Assembly: GCA_002352935.1 (NCBI GenBank)
Contig: DDHO01000011.1
Location: 1 to 57,937, forward strand
Reading direction: 5' to 3'
Origin: Firmicutes bacterium UBA1874
GTDB lineage: Bacteria; Bacillota; UBA1874
Length of the DNA stretch: 57,937 bases
The notes under the pieces are model-generated. The model was not told the DNA's origin, made no database searches, and was given only the letters and a program-made list of their open reading frames with translations. Below are positions 7,871 to 57,901 of the stretch, in pieces (position 1 is the stretch's first letter; each line of letters starts with the position of its first letter). The position numbers were made by a program, and so were the translations under genes.

Positions 7871-8095
7871 TCACAATGGATGAAAAGGGTTTCTTCCGCC
7901 TTGTGTCATAGTACTGGTATGAGTATGTGGGAGTCCCTGCCTGTTATAAGTATAAATGGGGTAATCTGAATCAAGTTTTTCTACAGGTAACCTGTAATCA
8001 GCTGGCATGAACTGGGAAAACTGCTCAATGGAAAATTCTATTCCCGGATGTACTTCGTCTGGATATGGCCATTTTAAAATTCCTTCTTTTCTTCG
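7871..8095 (-). pseudogene. Relic of a molybdopterin oxidoreductase / formate dehydrogenase alpha subunit gene
   Basis: Start-less frame EGILKWPYPDEVHPG..PADYRLPVEKLDSDYPIYTYNRQGLPHTHTSTMTQGG. It matches the FdhA region GIQWPCP..HPG..PPxExPDeEYPlxLtTGRxxxHxHTGTMTRR. No start codon, and stops flank it. Confidence 0.5.
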
Positions 8096-8142
8096 TTAAC
8101 CAGGTTTTCTTCAATGAAGTATATTTTTTCTTGGTCAGCTTG

Positions 8143-9186
8143 TTATGATAAAACTTCTATCATTCCCACTTCCTTGGCTGTAATATAACCGATATTCGCT
8201 GCTGCCAGGCACCCTTTTTTAAGCAAGGATTCCCGCAAGCGTTCCTCCCTGTCCTGGGGAACTGCTATTAACAGTCCACCTGACGTTTGTGGATCGCATA
8301 AAAGCATTCTGTCTTCCCGGCTGCTGATATCATTCCAGTTCACTTTTTCCCTCAGAAAACCGTAATTCCGGTAGGCCCCAGGCGGCACAATACCTGCTTC
8401 AGCCAACTCTCTTGTTCCATTTATCACAGGGATTTTAGATAAAAAAAGACTGGCTGAAACCTTGCTGGCAATCAGCATCTCTAATAGATGCCCTAAAAGA
8501 CTGAAACCTGTTACATCGGTACAGGCATTAACACCAATTACCGTCATTGCTTCAGATGCTTTTTTGTTCAGATGACCCATTATATTGTATACTTCCTTCT
8601 CTAGTGGGTCATTAATTAATTCCTGACCAAGGGCAGTGGTAATGATACCGGTGCCCAGCGGTTTAGTCAAAATTAAAGCATCCCCGGGTTTTGCCCCCCT
8701 TTTGGTAATTAATTTTGCAGGATCTACTATTCCTGTTACAGCCAAACCATATTTAGGTGCATTATCTTCCATGGAATGTCCCCCGGCAATACTAGCCCCT
8801 GCTTCCAAAGTTTTGTCTTTGCCTCCTTCTAGAATGACTTCCAGAATGTTAAGGGGCAGACTTTTTACAGGAAATCCCACAATATTGAGTGCAAAAACGG
8901 GCTTTGCTCCCATGGCATAAATATCGCTAATAGCATTTGAAGCTGCTACGGCACCAAAAGCATAGGGATCATTTAGAATGGGAGTAATTAAGTCTACAGT
9001 TTGCACAATGGCCAGAGAAGAACTGATTTGATAGATAGCAGCATCTTCTTTTATGCCACTAACGATCCTTTTATCTGTAACGGGAGGGAAATTATTTAAC
9101 AGCTGCTCAAGATCCGCCGGACCTATTTTGGAAGCTCAGCCGGCTCCAGGTGAAAAAGCAGTAAGCTTAATAAAGGGTTTTTCCAA
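8143..9186 (-). CDS. selD: Selenide, water dikinase SelD, a selenoprotein with an in-frame UGA at codon 17
   Basis: The ORF track gives only 8143-9006. The same frame continues upstream through TGA (9138-9136) to TTG 9186, which lies 7 nt after GAGGTG. The N-terminus reads MEKPFIKLTAFSPGAG-U-ASKIGPADLEQLL, the SelD glycine-rich loop with Sec where E. coli has Cys17. Total length 347 aa. Confidence 0.85.
9105..9138 (-). promoter_or_regulatory. UGA-Sec codon with putative bacterial SECIS hairpin
   Basis: UGA is followed by GCUU(9135-9132)/GAGC(9108-9105) and GGUCC(9123-9119)-GGC-GGAUC(9115-9111) stems. The apical stem starts 12 nt after the UGA. Confidence 0.45.
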
Positions 9187-9402
9187 GCTGCTACACCTCG
9201 AATTTGTTTTATGTTATTTCACGGCTTGATTGATGTTTTTGGCTATGCCGGAAATCCCTGACCGTTAAAAATTAAATTTATCCAGGAACCACCTTCTACT
9301 TTAACAATTACTTTAGCTTATGTTATCATAGGTTTAATAATAATAGAAATGCATCTTTATTATAATATCTATGCAATAATGTTATATATTGGAGAGAAGA
9401 AA

Positions 9403-10191
9403 ATGCTGGCTCGTTTAAAGTACTTTTACCAGGTAGCAAGCAGCGGGAGTTTTTCCCGGGCGGCCGAAGAACTCTTTATCAGTCAACCAGCTCTATCCCG
9501 TCAGATCGCTGCTCTGGAAGAGGATGTAGGACTGCCGCTTTTCAGCCGGCAGGGAAGAAAGCCGGTGCTAACCGATGCGGGAAGGCGACTTTTTAACTAT
9601 GCGGAGAAAATAATGGAGCTGAACAGGGAAGCAAAAAAAGAGATTTCCGAGCTTAAAAATCTTACTTCCGGTGAGGTAATCATAGGAGCCAGCACTACTA
9701 TTGCCAATTACCTGCTCCCGCCGGTACTGGCAGATTATCACCACCGCCATCCCGAAATAAAGATTTTTTTAAATGTCGGCAACAGCGAAGATATTGAACA
9801 GGATGTGTTAAATAACCGGGTAGACCTGGGATTTATAGGCAGCAGCGTGCAGAGTCCCAGGCTTTTTCAGGAACAATTTGCTGAAGACGAGCTGTTCCTG
9901 GTAGTCTCCCAAAACCATCACTTTGCCAAAATAAACAGGGACGTTTTTCCCTCACACCTGGCTGAGGAAACGTTTTTATATCGAGAAGCAGGCTCGGATA
10001 CCCGGCGTCTCTTTAATATTTTTTTAAAGGAGATGGAGGTAAAACCCAGTTCTGTCGTGACCTTGGGTCATACCGAAGCCATAAAAAGCGGAATTATTAA
10101 CAACTTGGGCATCTCTTTTCTTTCAAAACATACTTGGCAAAACGAATTGAAGCTGGGGCTGCTGGTACCCCTGGAAAAATATATAAAATGA
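9403..10191 (+). CDS. LysR family transcriptional regulator, 3' end displaced by a frameshift
   Basis: HTH FSRAAEELFISQPALSRQIAALE. ATG 9403 follows GGAGAG. The expected C-terminal motif (KRPLKLVYLKNARLSPAV) is in another frame at 10188-10352. Confidence 0.75.
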   Translation: MLARLKYFYQVASSGSFSRAAEELFISQPALSRQIAALEEDVGLPLFSRQGRKPVLTDAGRRLFNYAEKIMELNREAKKEISELKNLTSGEVIIGASTTIANYLLPPVLADYHHRHPEIKIFLNVGNSEDIEQDVLNNRVDLGFIGSSVQSPRLFQEQFAEDELFLVVSQNHHFAKINRDVFPSHLAEETFLYREAGSDTRRLFNIFLKEMEVKPSSVVTLGHTEAIKSGIINNLGISFLSKHTWQNELKLGLLVPLEKYIK

Positions 10192-10461
10192 AAAGGCCCT
10201 TGAAGCTAGTTTATCTGAAAAATGCTCGGCTTTCACCGGCGGTTTTAATGCCTTATATCTGCACTGAAAAAGTACTATTATCAATAGGTGGTAAAAACCG
10301 GATTATCCCGATACACCCAAAGATTTTTCCCTTTATCAAAAAATTGGCATGATAAAAACGGTTGTCTGCCGGGAGGAACGGCAGGAAAATGTCCGCAAAA
10401 TATTACCGGGAGAAAAAATACTACCCCACACTTAAGCAGCTAAAAAATAAAAAAATTAACA

Positions 10462-10623
10462 TCCCATTCTGGCAGGCATACTTTCGCCAGTTTAATGGCT
10501 AGAGCCAAAGTGGACCCATTAAATATAGAAGGAATAATTGGAAACAGTGATTACGCTTTTACAGCTAATACGTATACACATCCAGAGTTAGAGGAATTAA
10601 AAAAGGCAATCAGTAAAATTTAA
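10462..10623 (+). pseudogene. C-terminal relic of a tyrosine recombinase (phage-type integrase)
   Basis: Frame SHSGRHTFASLMARAKVDPLNIEGIIGNSDYAFTANTYTH. It carries the R-H-T-F-A box, the (L)GH-like box and the catalytic Tyr context. An upstream stop falls at 10441 and no N-terminal domain remains. Confidence 0.55.
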
Positions 10624-10704
10624 CCCTTAATTTATGTTAGTTGTTTGTTAGTTACCGCCCAAATTTTGCACGATTTTATACGAATTCCGGTTAAAAGTAA
10701 AAGA

Positions 10705-10731
10705 CCCCTGCAAACCTTGCGGTTGCAGGGG
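10705..10731. terminator. Bidirectional hairpin terminator between the integrase relic and tRNA-Pro
   Basis: CCCCTGCAA (10705-10713) pairs with TTGCAGGGG (10723-10731). T-rich runs follow on both strands. Confidence 0.6.
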
Positions 10732-10746
10732 TTTCTTGGTTTTCTG

Positions 10747-10823
<77 letters not shown>

Positions 10824-10845
10824 ACACCCATTGATAGCAGGTGAA

Positions 10846-10874
10846 ATTATAGTACATCTTGCTTAAAAAGTCAA
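10846..10874 (-). promoter_or_regulatory. Sigma-A type promoter of tRNA-Pro
   Basis: TTGACT (10874-10869), 17-nt spacer, TATAAT (10851-10846). It lies about 22 nt upstream of the mature tRNA 5' end. Confidence 0.6.
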
Positions 10875-11009
10875 GGTGGGGCTTATATTTCTAATAGATC
10901 AAGCCCTTAACTATTTTTTGTTGAATTTTTCAGCAGGTAAAAAAGCGGTACAGCATTATTATATCAAACCCGCCATCGGTCCATTATTCGATAAACAGGC
11001 TTAAGACTT

Positions 11010-12260
11010 TTAAGAAACTTCCTGCCGGTTTTCTTGATCAAGCCAGAAGCTACTGTGTAGAGCCCTCATGGCTTTTTCCGCCGCGTCTTTTTTAACAATT
11101 ACTGAAATTTTAATTTCCGAAGTAGAAATCATATGGATATTTATCTCTGCTTCAGCTAAGGCAGCAAACATGCGGCCTGCCACACCGGGATTAGTGATCA
11201 TGCCTGCCCCGACAATGCTTACTTTAGCAACATCAGAATCATAAGCTATCCCTTTTGCCCCTATATCGCTTTTTACTTTTTCTACAACTTCCACGGCCTT
11301 ATAAAGGTCATCCTGTGAAACGGTAAAGGAAATGTCGTTGTACTCCTCCCTCATAGTACTCTGCACTATCATATCCACATTAATGTTGGCCTCCGCCAGC
11401 GCGACAAAAAGTTTTTGGGCAATTCCAGGCTTATCCGGAACATCAAAAACCGCAATTCTTGCTACGTTTTTATCAGCAGCTACGCCACTGATGATCATTT
11501 CTCTTTCCAAATTTTCCCGATGCAACTCTTCTTCCCCCCCCACAACAGTTCCGTCCTCGCGGCTAAAACTCGATCTAACATGTAAAATAACATTGTTAAT
11601 CTTAGCACATTCTACCGCCCTAGGATGCAGCACTGCCGCTCCCAGGCTGGCCAGTTCCAGCATTTCATCATACGATATTCTCTTTAATTTTCTAGCCCTG
11701 GGCACTACCCGGGGATCTGCAGTGTAAATACCATCAACGTCTGTAAAAATTTCGCATACATCCGCCTTCAAGGCAGACGCTACAGCTACTGCAGTTGTAT
11801 CGGAACCCCCTCTTCCAAGCGTAGTAATTTCGTTTTCCTTAGTAGCTCCCTGGAAACCGGCAACGATAACAACTTTTCCTGCTTCCAGCTCTCTGTCCAA
11901 ACGTTTTTCGTCCACCTTCAGGATTTTAGCTTTCGTATGGACTTCGTCGGTTCTAATCCCGACCTGGGCTCCTGTAAGAGAAATTACGGGCTCCCCAAGG
12001 CTTTCTATAGCCATAGCCAGCAAAGCCATAGATTCCTGTTCACCGGTAGCAAGAAGCATATCCATCTCACGTTCGGGAGGGTTATCCGTAATTTCTTTGG
12101 CAAGAGCAATAAGTTTATCTGTATTATTGCCCCTGGCAGATACAACCACAACCACCTTGTTTCCTTTCTTTTTACATTCTACAATTCGTTTGGCCACATT
12201 TTTAATACACCCTGTATCTGCAACAGAAGTTCCTCCATATTTTTGCACAACAATACCCAT
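11010..12260 (-). CDS. lysC: Aspartate kinase (with two ACT domains)
   Basis: MGIVVQKYGGTSV..., an amino-acid kinase fold followed by a C-terminal ACT pair. Confidence 0.92.
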   Translation of the reverse strand: MGIVVQKYGGTSVADTGCIKNVAKRIVECKKKGNKVVVVVSARGNNTDKLIALAKEITDNPPEREMDMLLATGEQESMALLAMAIESLGEPVISLTGAQVGIRTDEVHTKAKILKVDEKRLDRELEAGKVVIVAGFQGATKENEITTLGRGGSDTTAVAVASALKADVCEIFTDVDGIYTADPRVVPRARKLKRISYDEMLELASLGAAVLHPRAVECAKINNVILHVRSSFSREDGTVVGGEEELHRENLEREMIISGVAADKNVARIAVFDVPDKPGIAQKLFVALAEANINVDMIVQSTMREEYNDISFTVSQDDLYKAVEVVEKVKSDIGAKGIAYDSDVAKVSIVGAGMITNPGVAGRMFAALAEAEINIHMISTSEIKISVIVKKDAAEKAMRALHSSFWLDQENRQEVS

Positions 12261-15846: not shown

Positions 15847-17136
<1,290 letters not shown>

Positions 17137-38249: not shown

Positions 38250-39443
38250 TTAAATATGTGCGCCGCTGCCAAGCACTCCGGCAACAGTCTGTACGTCCTT
38301 ATCGCCCCTTCCTGACAAGTTTACGATTATGATTTCTTCTTTACTCATATTTCCTGCTTCCCGTTTAATATAAGCAAGCGCATGAGCGCTTTCCAAGGCA
38401 GGGATTATCCCTTCCGTACGGGCTAAAAGCTGAAACGCATCAAGAGCTTCCCGGTCAGTAACCGATACGTATTCAGCTCTCTTTGAATCTTTTAGATAAC
38501 TGTGTTCCGGGCCCACCCCGGGGTAATCTAAACCCGCGGAAATCGAATGAACAGGACTAACCTGTCCGAATTCATCCTGCAGGAGGTAGCTGTAAGAACC
38601 GTGAAGTACTCCGGGAATTCCCTTGGTGAGGGACGCCGCATGCTCTCCGGTATCTAGTCCCCTTCCTGCAGCCTCCACACCTATAAGCCTTACGTCATCA
38701 TCTAGGAACGGGTAGAAAATGCCCATAGCATTACTTCCCCCTCCTACGCAGGCAACAATGCAGTCCGGAAGCCTGCCTTCCTTTTCAATAATCTGTTCCC
38801 GTGTTTCCCTGCCGATTACCGTTTGAAAATCCCTGACCATGACAGGGTAGGGGTGCGGTCCCACTACCGAACCGATAACATAATAAGTGTCGTTCACATT
38901 TGTTACCCAGTCCCTTATGGCCTCGCTGGTAGCATCCTTGAGAGTTCGGGAACCGGTAGAGACCGGAACAACTTCAGCACCCAAAAGACGCATGCGAAAC
39001 ACATTTAACTCCTGCCTCCGCATATCTTCTTCGCCCATAAAAATCTCACACTTTAAGCCCAGCAGGGCAGCAGCAGTCGCTGTAGCCACACCGTGTTGAC
39101 CGGCTCCCGTTTCAGCAATGATACGTTTTTTCCCCATCCTCCGAGCCAGCAAAACCTGGGCCAGAGCGTTATTAATCTTGTGTGCACCCGTGTGATTGAG
39201 GTCTTCTCTTTTTAAATATATTTTCGCCCCTCCCAGTTTCCGAGTTAACTGATCAGCATAATAGAGCGGTGTCGGCCTACCCACGTATTCCCGAAGATAA
39301 AACGATAAAGTATTTAAAAATTCCGGATCGCTGCGGGCTTTAAAATAGGCTTTTTCAAGTTCAAGAACGGCAGGCATCAATGTTTCGGCTAAAAAACGAC
39401 CTCCATAATCTTTAAAGTGACCTTCGCTATCAGGTAATACCAT
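38250..39443 (-). CDS. trpB: Tryptophan synthase beta chain (TrpB1 type)
   Basis: [14 protein letters not shown]-lysine motif, 397 aa. Confidence 0.95.
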
Positions 39444-44663: not shown

Positions 44664-45092
44664 TCAACTCCTGCCCGGAGCAACCCTGTGTCCCAGACCA
44701 ACGCCGACTTCATTTAAATGCAATAAGCCGATACCAAAGAACACAGCAACGCTAACATGCTCTTTGTATCGAGCTATGCCAATCTTTCCTCCTACATTAA
44801 GGCCGACGGCTTTAACCATGAGCTGGGACAACGCCTCTCGTGCCGCTCCGGCAACTGCACCTTCATCAGCATGTATACCCTCTATCACGCCCTCACGTTT
44901 TGCAGCAACTACCGTTCTCTCTACAATGTTCTTTACGGAACCTATAAATTCCCCTCCGTAATCTACAGCGGCCGTTTTTATGCTCTGGTTGAGAAATCTC
45001 TCCTTGAGCTCACTTTCCTCTTTCCTGTTTCTAGATATTGCCATCTGTATAGCCGCTCTGGCTATGTTCCTGCTACCGTACATATCTTCCAC
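44664..45092 (-). CDS. HutP family protein (RNA-binding antiterminator family), ligand and target unknown
   Basis: 142 aa. REGVIEGIHADEGAVAGAAREALSQLM...GLNVGGKIGIARYKEHVSVAVFFGIGLLHLNEVGVGLGHR is colinear with B. subtilis HutP and matches the clostridial HutP-family sequence type. GTG start lies 10 nt after GGGGAGG. Confidence 0.75.
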   Translation of the reverse strand: MEDMYGSRNIARAAIQMAISRNRKEESELKERFLNQSIKTAAVDYGGEFIGSVKNIVERTVVAAKREGVIEGIHADEGAVAGAAREALSQLMVKAVGLNVGGKIGIARYKEHVSVAVFFGIGLLHLNEVGVGLGHRVAPGRS

Positions 45093-56461: not shown

Positions 56462-57823
56462 CTAGAGCTCTGGCAGGGTGGACCAGCTCTTCTCCAGCAA
56501 TTCATCCGAAAGGGGGGCATCTTTAAGCTGCCCGCTTAAATAATTATCATAAGCAGAAAGGTCAAAATGCCCGTGCCCGCTGAGATTAAAGAGTATGGTC
56601 TTGCTTTCGCCGCTTTCCTTGCAGGCCAATGCCTCTTCAACGGCACCATGAATAGCATGAGCACTTTCTGGAGCCGGAAGTATTGCCTCTGTCCGGGCAA
56701 ACAAAACGGCGGAAGAGAAGACGTCTCTTTGATTGTAAGCCCTAGCAGTTATATACCCGTCATGATAAAGCTGGCTGAGGAGTGGCGACTCGCCGTGATA
56801 TCTCAAGCCGCCTGCATGAATGCCAGGAGGTACAAAGTCATGGCCCAACGTATACATTTTAAGCATGGGAGTAAGTTTAGCGGTATCCCCAAAATCGTAG
56901 GCAAATTTTCCGCGTGTCAGAGTCGGACAGGCAGTAGGTTCAATCGCACGCAATTCTATCTTTTTCCCGTTTAAAATATCAGTAAAAAAAGGAAAGGCAA
57001 TTCCGCTGAAATTGCTCCCCCCGCCGCAGCACCCGATAACTACATCAGGAAAAGCATCAGCTTTTTCCATCTGTTTTTTAGCCTCCAGGCCTATGACGGT
57101 CTGGTGTAGCATAACATGATTGAGAACGCTACCCAGAGAGTAATGAGTATCACTACGGGAAGCTGCAATTTCTACGGCTTCGCTGATCGCAATACCAAGT
57201 GTTCCCGGAGAAGAAGGATCTTTTTCTAATATTTCGCGTCCGGATTTAGTCTGACTGCTGGGACTGGGAATAACATTCGCACCATAAGTTTCCATAAAAA
57301 TCCGGCGGTAAGGTTTTTGATCATAGCTTACTCGTACCATATACACTTCGCATTCCAGGTCAAAAAAGCTACAGGCTATGCTGAGCGCAGTACCCCACTG
57401 GCCGGCACCCGTTTCAGTAGTCAAACGTTTTGTACCGGAAATCTTATTATAGTAAGCCTGGGGTAAGGAAGTATTTAATTTATGACTGCCGGCAGGGCTT
57501 GTCCCTTCATACTTGTAGTAAATTTTGGCTGGAGTATCCAGTTCTTTCTCCAAATTGTAAGCACGGTACATGGGAGACGGGCGCCAAAGACGGTAGAGTT
57601 CTCTTACTTTCTCAGGAATTTCAATCCAGCGGTCAGTACTTACCTCTTGAATTATCAGGTCCATAGGGAAAAGGGGTGCAAGGTCCTCAGGCCCTGCAGG
57701 TTTTTTGGTAGCCGGATTTAAAGGGGGGCTTAATGGGTTAGGTAAGTCCGCCTGAATATTATACCAGCTTGTTGGAATATCTTTTTCTTCTAATAAAATT
57801 TTATAATCTTCACTCAACCTCAT
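56462..57823 (-). CDS. TrpB-like PLP-dependent enzyme (tryptophan synthase beta, TrpB2 type)
   Basis: N-terminal [13 protein letters not shown] extension, SHKLN lysine motif, roughly 450 aa as in TrpB2. The ATG at 57823 follows GAGGAGAGGAGAG. The ORF-track TTG at 57838 lies inside that SD. Confidence 0.88.
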
Positions 57824-57841
57824 CTCTCCTCTCCTCAACTA
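57808..57841 (-). promoter_or_regulatory. Phased NAG triplet array covering the SD and start codon of the TrpB2 gene
   Basis: TAG-tt-GAG-ga-GAG-ga-GAG-at-GAG-gtt-GAG-tg-AAG on the minus strand. The AUG is formed by the 'at' spacer plus the G of the fifth triplet. Confidence 0.6.
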
Positions 57842-57871
57842 AGAAGATGTGAACTATAAAAACTAATAATT

Positions 57872-57901
57872 ATTCTACTAGAATTGTCTTTTTTTGTCCA
57901 A
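57872..57901 (-). promoter_or_regulatory. Possible promoter of the TrpB2 gene
   Basis: TTGGAC (57901-57896), 18-nt spacer, TAGAAT (57877-57872). Confidence 0.35.

Follow-up and report, generated by a model that had tools for sequence, protein, structure and literature searches.

The gene for TrpB2, a TrpB-like PLP enzyme of Firmicutes bacterium UBA1874, starts inside an array of (G/U/A)AG triplets that is very probably a functional operator for TRAP, the textbook RNA-binding regulator, a ring protein activated by tryptophan, acting on the initiation of TrpB2 translation. The gene lies near one end of the window, by which we mean the whole stretch of DNA that was analysed (57,937 nucleotides, contig DDHO01000011.1). 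In a scan of the whole genome only the array of the trpE leader, which is in the same window, is longer than the one at the TrpB2 start. At the TrpB2 genes of other members of the phylum, arrays of this kind go together with a TRAP gene and keep a fixed register relative to the start codon.

A triplet array over the TrpB2 start

The array consists of seven contiguous triplets (five GAG, one UAG and one AAG) separated by spacers of 2, 2, 2, 2, 3 and 2 nt (Table 1). With respect to the A of the AUG codon, the first bases of the triplets are at -18 (UAG), at -13, -8, -3, +2 and +8 (GAG) and at +13 (AAG), and both the Shine-Dalgarno (SD) sequence and the AUG of TrpB2 are contained within positions 57841-57808. 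The tandem (G/U/A)AG triplets with 2-3-nt spacers that characterize TRAP sites are therefore present at the TrpB2 start, in a number that is below the 9-11 of B. subtilis but within the range of 4-9 seen in TRAP-encoding relatives. The preliminary description of this DNA had reported a run of triplets at these positions burying the SD and the AUG, and the sequence is exactly as it described; the run does pass through the AUG, but it extends to the first base of codon 6 and not merely 'into codon 5', a trivial slip. Two more UAG triplets that it had placed upstream (57865 and 57856) are indeed there, but neither is a member of the contiguous site, the first being out of phase and the second separated from it by two empty positions. 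The UAG at 57856-57854 is a possible eighth TRAP contact, and NAG triplets are weakly enriched in relatives as far upstream as this position (offset -33).

Table 1. Features of the TrpB2 locus and of the trp region, in window coordinates
Feature	Position	Strand	Details
NAG triplet array, putative TRAP operator	57841-57808	-	UAG-uu-GAG-ga-GAG-ga-GAG-au-GAG-guu-GAG-ug-AAG, sequence read
Single triplets of the array	UAG 57841-39; GAG 36-34, 31-29, 26-24, 21-19, 15-13; AAG 10-08	-	
Shine-Dalgarno sequence GAGGAG	57836-57831	-	Triplets 2 and 3 plus the spacer between them; 7 nt upstream of AUG
TrpB2 start codon AUG	57823-57821	-	AU serves as spacer and G opens the fifth triplet (GAG-AU-GAG)
Upstream UAG, offset -33	57856-57854	-	15 nt (3 x 5) 5' of UAG 57841; same 5-nt phase, two non-NAG positions between
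Upstream UAG	57865-63	-	Off phase by 1 nt; coincides with or precedes the predicted transcription start
TrpB2 (TrpB-like PLP enzyme) CDS	56462-57823	-	453 aa plus stop; NCBIfam NF009057 745.5 bits, TIGR01415 654.9 bits
Promoter-like site TGGACA-17-TAGAAT	57900-57872	-	10/12 matches; consensus match only
Terminator-like hairpin 3' of TrpB2	56387-56351	-	GC-rich; GGGCGGCC, 9-nt loop, GGCCGCCC, T-run 6 nt later; read by eye
trpE-leader array	44165-44118	-	10 triplets, all 2-nt spacers
Intrinsic terminator after trpE-leader array	44091-44065	-	
Canonical TrpB1, inside the trp operon	38250-39443	-	TIGR00263, 648 bits
HutP-like gene	44664-45092	-	Beside the trp operon

TrpB2 does not belong to the trpEGDCFBA operon, which is complete and occupies positions 44034-37359, and its match to NF009057 identifies the gene behind the array as one of tryptophan metabolism. 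To our knowledge TrpB2 is absent from B. subtilis, and its role beside the canonical synthase is debated, the candidates being indole salvage and a stand-alone synthase. The ATG at 57823 was taken as the start codon because alignments with homologues begin at residues 2-8 of the protein that it opens, and an in-frame TTG at 57838 was rejected on the same grounds. Given the promoter-like site upstream and the hairpin and T-run after the stop codon, TrpB2 looks monocistronic, with a predicted 5' UTR of about 40 nt that would start near position 57865; the contig stops 36 nt 5' of the -35 hexamer. A simple terminator scan did not call the 3' hairpin, as its T-run begins 6 nt past the stem. The minimum free-energy fold of the 5' UTR pairs UCUUCUU (57847-57841, minus strand) with GAGGAGA of the SD region, at -15.2 kcal/mol, a stability that does not differ significantly from that of shuffled sequences (z = -1.36, with 19 of 200 as stable).

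Chains of GAG, UAG or AAG triplets with 2-3-nt spacers were sought on both strands of the complete assembly (103 contigs, 1.58 Mb). Chains of at least six triplets occur seven times in the genome; the trpE leader (ten triplets) comes first and the TrpB2 start (seven triplets, five of them GAG) second. The other five are located inside long open frames, mostly have 3-nt spacers, i.e. a period-6 codon pattern, and hold no more than two GAG, except for a second seven-triplet chain with four. Lesser arrays, of at least five triplets, are all GAG-poor, irregularly spaced or within coding frames. Genomes simulated with a third-order Markov model had 0.7 chains of at least six triplets each, and in ten simulations no chain reached seven. 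The array at the TrpB2 start is far from chance.

A strong SD could nevertheless generate such a pattern by itself: the array would then be a by-product of a purine-rich SD and of chance GAGs in the first codons, with no regulatory role. A purine-rich SD is enough to account for three of the seven triplets (GAG-ga-GAG-ga-GAG), which lie within GAGGAGAGGAGAG, a double SD-like sequence. We therefore compared the TrpB2 start with 2050 sites with an SD motif 4-10 nt before a start codon that opens at least 100 codons. The best chain at any of these sites other than TrpB2 has four triplets, compared with seven at TrpB2 (window -30 to +21), and the next best has five (at three sites) when a wider window and one skipped position are allowed. 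Moreover, the triplet register continues on either side of the SD. The earlier claim that an SD alone does not readily explain the array is thus upheld, and the genome-wide scan proposed beforehand, in which frequent arrays at strong SDs were to count against regulation, found that they are not common there. Together with the comparison of genomes presented below, this makes a mere by-product of the SD very unlikely. The same scan also covers the trpE/trpG junction (42590-42560, minus strand), where four GAG with irregular spacing (2, 1 and 4 nt) are found just upstream of the trpG start. This cluster was rejected as a TRAP site, since it does not exceed the background, four triplets being present at ten other start sites as well.

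TRAP and the trpE leader in the same genome

As judged from its sequence, the genome encodes a canonical and intact TRAP (MtrB). The protein of 76 aa, encoded on contig C92, matches PF02081 (TrpBP) with 140 bits and the NCBIfam MtrB equivalog NF009724 with 142.8 bits (cut-off 117), and compares with the solved TRAPs 1c9s, 1wap and 9bds with E values of 1e-29 to 1e-57. It shares the block FHHSEKLDKGEVM.AQFTEHTSA.KIRGKA unchanged with these solved TRAPs, and we take this block to contain the Trp-binding loops and the RNA contacts Lys37, Lys56 and Arg58 (B. subtilis numbering). With a core identical to that of the solved proteins, the Trp- and RNA-binding regions appear to be intact. The TRAP gene is not adjacent to any trp gene; on contig C92 (about 7995-11192) it is preceded by two ORFs, one resembling the C-terminal part of DnaE and one resembling coaD, and followed by one resembling pfkA, these neighbours having been named by eye.

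The ten-triplet array upstream of trpE is followed by an intrinsic terminator, and this leader is a classical TRAP attenuator, the other TRAP target in the window. The preliminary description had counted two Trp-pathway targets here, and the count agrees with the sequence analysis, in which the trpE leader and the TrpB2 start, with ten and seven triplets, carry the top two arrays of the genome. It had also proposed that the factor acting on the trpE leader controls TrpB2 translation. This reading is favoured by the presence of a TRAP gene, by the TRAP attenuator at trpE and by the distribution of arrays and T-boxes in the phylum, to which we now turn.

TrpB2 start regions across the phylum

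The source genome is the only one of its family in the sample, and the sampled relatives all belong to the 'same phylum' only. Of 301 genomes sampled evenly from the phylum, 144 have TRAP and 112 have TrpB2. We compared 106 TrpB2 start regions, scored blind to TRAP status; six short loci for which there was no tblastn anchor were left out of the statistics. A chain of at least four triplets is found between -60 and +30 of the TrpB2 start in 50 of 68 TRAP-encoding genomes, compared with one of 38 genomes without TRAP (Fisher 1.4e-13, kinship ignored). With one vote per family, the figures are 24/36 and 1/26, respectively (Fisher 2.5e-7), and when one skipped position is allowed they are 60/68 and 2/38 (Fisher 4e-18, kinship ignored). 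The array is thus conserved at orthologues and co-occurs with TRAP, in statistics that ignore phylogeny, and the TRAP-negative genomes of the comparison tend towards more divergent TrpB2. The one TRAP-negative genome with a perfect array at TrpB2 (G126, eight triplets) is an assembly of 450 contigs with 93% completeness, and both of its family mates have TRAP; its TRAP gene is probably missing from the assembly. Conversely, eight of the 68 TRAP-encoding genomes have fewer than four triplets even with one gap, and three of these eight use a T-box. TrpB2 matches with one or two in-frame stops per gene were observed in each of the three genomes sampled from one genus, and also in two other genomes; they could be pseudogenes, cases of recoding or sequencing errors.

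The position of the triplets relative to the start codon was counted at 62 TRAP-positive loci, excluding our own genome and the T-box loci. A NAG starts at -3 in 81% of the TRAP-positive TrpB2 loci versus 13% of the TRAP-negative ones, and at +2 in 84% versus 18%; the values are 50% versus 11% at -8 and 50% versus 21% at -13. In TRAP-positive loci the start codon sets the register of the TrpB2 array, and the site described here conforms to this consensus. The junction NAG|AUG-AG is found in 48 of 68 TRAP-positive loci and in one of 38 TRAP-negative loci, and the second codon of TrpB2 is AGN in 53/68 and 7/38, respectively. The enrichment of both in TRAP-encoding genomes suggests that the operator constrains the first codons of the gene. 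These results also bear on the possibility of an SD by-product, because arrays at TrpB2 are almost confined to TRAP-encoding genomes although the genes of the other genomes have SDs too, and because the preference for AGN at the second codon follows the same division.

The comparison further allows TRAP to be weighed against another reader of the array, either the HutP-like protein or CsrA. The HutP-like gene heads the aromatic/trp block, and HutP of B. subtilis binds NAG-type triplets; for CsrA, GGA motifs are present in the array. In HutP sites, however, UAG triplets come in two groups of three and are spaced by 4 nt, whereas at TrpB2 most triplets are GAG and the spacing is 2-3 nt, as for TRAP. 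A HutP-like gene is present in 185 of the 301 genomes (55-74% identity), independently of TRAP, and the TrpB2 array is found in one of 18 genomes that have it without TRAP, in four of eight with TRAP alone and in 45 of 59 with both, so that it goes with TRAP and not with the HutP-like gene. A HutP-type binding site at the TrpB2 start was consequently rejected on spacing, triplets and co-occurrence. As for CsrA, what the relatives conserve is the 5-nt period of GAG and not GGA. We regard a reader other than TRAP as highly improbable.

In the genomes without TRAP, a different element is found in front of the gene. A T-box core motif is located upstream of TrpB2 in 26 of 38 TRAP-negative genomes, compared with five of 68 TRAP-encoding genomes; Rfam identified the full T-box (RF00230, 93-112 bits) at six TRAP-negative TrpB2 loci, and the specifier is GAA-UGG-A (tryptophan) in all three alignments that were read. 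At the TrpB2 gene studied here no T-box (RF00230) was found, as the Rfam scan of the window gave only a SAM riboswitch and a tRNA; the riboswitch (RF00162, 89.8 bits; 17324-17225, minus strand) is upstream of an ORF at 15847-17130. With arrays where there is TRAP and Trp T-boxes where there is none, TrpB2 would be under tryptophan control by one device or the other. The sequences thus indicate that TrpB2 is Trp-regulated across the phylum, through TRAP-type arrays or tRNA-Trp T-boxes, in what appears to be a TRAP/T-box swap on one gene. T-box control has been reported for 'trpB-like' genes in Dehalococcoides (PMC2494555). One TRAP-encoding genome of our sample (G179) has two TrpB2 copies, each with a T-box motif and a run of 4-5 AAG/GAG triplets on the SD, and these copies could be under dual control.

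Proposed control of TrpB2 and known systems

In the mechanism that we propose, Trp-loaded TRAP would wrap the presumably single-stranded 5' end of the TrpB2 mRNA round its rim when tryptophan is plentiful. It would touch at most seven consecutive (G/U/A)AG triplets, over a stretch that begins 18 nt before the AUG and reaches 15 nt into the coding sequence. Since the SD and the AUG are within the stretch that would be bound, the 30S subunit could not bind and would be kept off, and no TrpB2 would be made. When tryptophan is scarce, TRAP would be released and the strong SD would drive the translation of TrpB2. We infer the binding of TRAP at this site, its dependence on tryptophan and the competition with the ribosome from the sequence and its comparison across genomes. 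As the seven contiguous triplets are fewer than the 9-11 of B. subtilis, affinity and depth of repression may be modest.

TRAP could also bind to the array with another main effect: it might alter the stability of the mRNA or, early in the gene, cause premature termination or drive RNA polymerase forward. There is a precedent in the trp leader, where TRAP on more than six repeats is able to push the polymerase ahead and promote termination (PMC3064811). At TrpB2, however, the array goes straight into the coding sequence, with no terminator, antiterminator or U-run after it; a trp-leader-type attenuator was therefore rejected here and transcription attenuation is unlikely. The start-anchored register of the relatives likewise indicates that selection has acted on the initiation region. 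We consider a main effect other than occlusion of the initiation region to be highly improbable.

The members of the TRAP regulon known to us are in essence those of B. subtilis, namely the trp operon, trpG, trpP, ycbK and rtpA-linked control. TrpB2 would add a target gene to a known mechanism of TRAP control, and the phylum-wide link with TRAP or a T-box, which recurs in dozens of families, concerns a poorly understood paralogue. This regulatory link is independent genomic evidence that TrpB2 is made in response to tryptophan shortage. In the literature that we searched, which did not cover the key comparative reviews, we found no TRAP site at TrpB2; one may be described in the reviews of Gutierrez-Preciado, Merino and Yanofsky. 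A more general proposal, for which we see the chances as evenly balanced, is that TRAP control of TrpB2 is a widespread and probably ancient arm of the regulon (at least 24 GTDB families), with a T-box swapped in wherever TRAP is absent, and that an operator on the start codon (GAG-AU-GAG) forces the AGN second codon. If this is true, TrpB2 would be a genuine Trp-starvation enzyme, for example an indole scavenger, and operators of seven and ten triplets could release TrpB2 and the trp operon at different Trp levels, in a hierarchical derepression. Because the core of this TRAP is identical to that of well-studied proteins, B. subtilis strains and purified TRAP should be directly usable as a portable test system.

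In B. subtilis, NAG repeats overlapping the ribosome-binding sites of trpG, trpP and ycbK enable TRAP to keep ribosomes from binding there (PMC4347634, PMC1635260, PMC10327191), and TRAP sites have 9-11 triplets (PMC4347634). The putative TrpB2 operator is similar to those of trpG (pabA), trpP (yhaG) and ycbK in that (G/U/A)AG triplets with 2-3-nt spacers cover the SD and the start codon of a tryptophan-related gene, which has its own transcript (predicted here) in a TRAP-encoding genome, and in the proposed competition with the 30S subunit. It differs from them in its target, TrpB2, and in having seven contiguous triplets instead of 9-11. The host also differs: it is a deep-branching member of a Bacillota-related phylum and does not belong to the Bacillales, and no anti-TRAP gene (PF15777) was found in its genome. 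With the attenuator of the trpEDCFBA leader, both in B. subtilis and at 44165-44065 of the window, the TrpB2 site has the triplet code and, if TRAP binds as proposed, the protein in common. Yet the 10-11 triplets of the leader prevent the antiterminator and allow the terminator, whereas the TrpB2 site lies on the initiation region and has neither element; the trpE leader and the TrpB2 site would together belong to one TRAP regulon of this genome. With the Trp T-box leaders of TrpB2 and trpB-like genes, finally, the site shares the regulated gene and the presumed logic, namely that TrpB2 is made when tryptophan is short. A T-box responds to uncharged tRNA-Trp and controls transcription via a structured leader of about 250 nt, whereas the TrpB2 site, which has no T-box, would sense free tryptophan through a protein.
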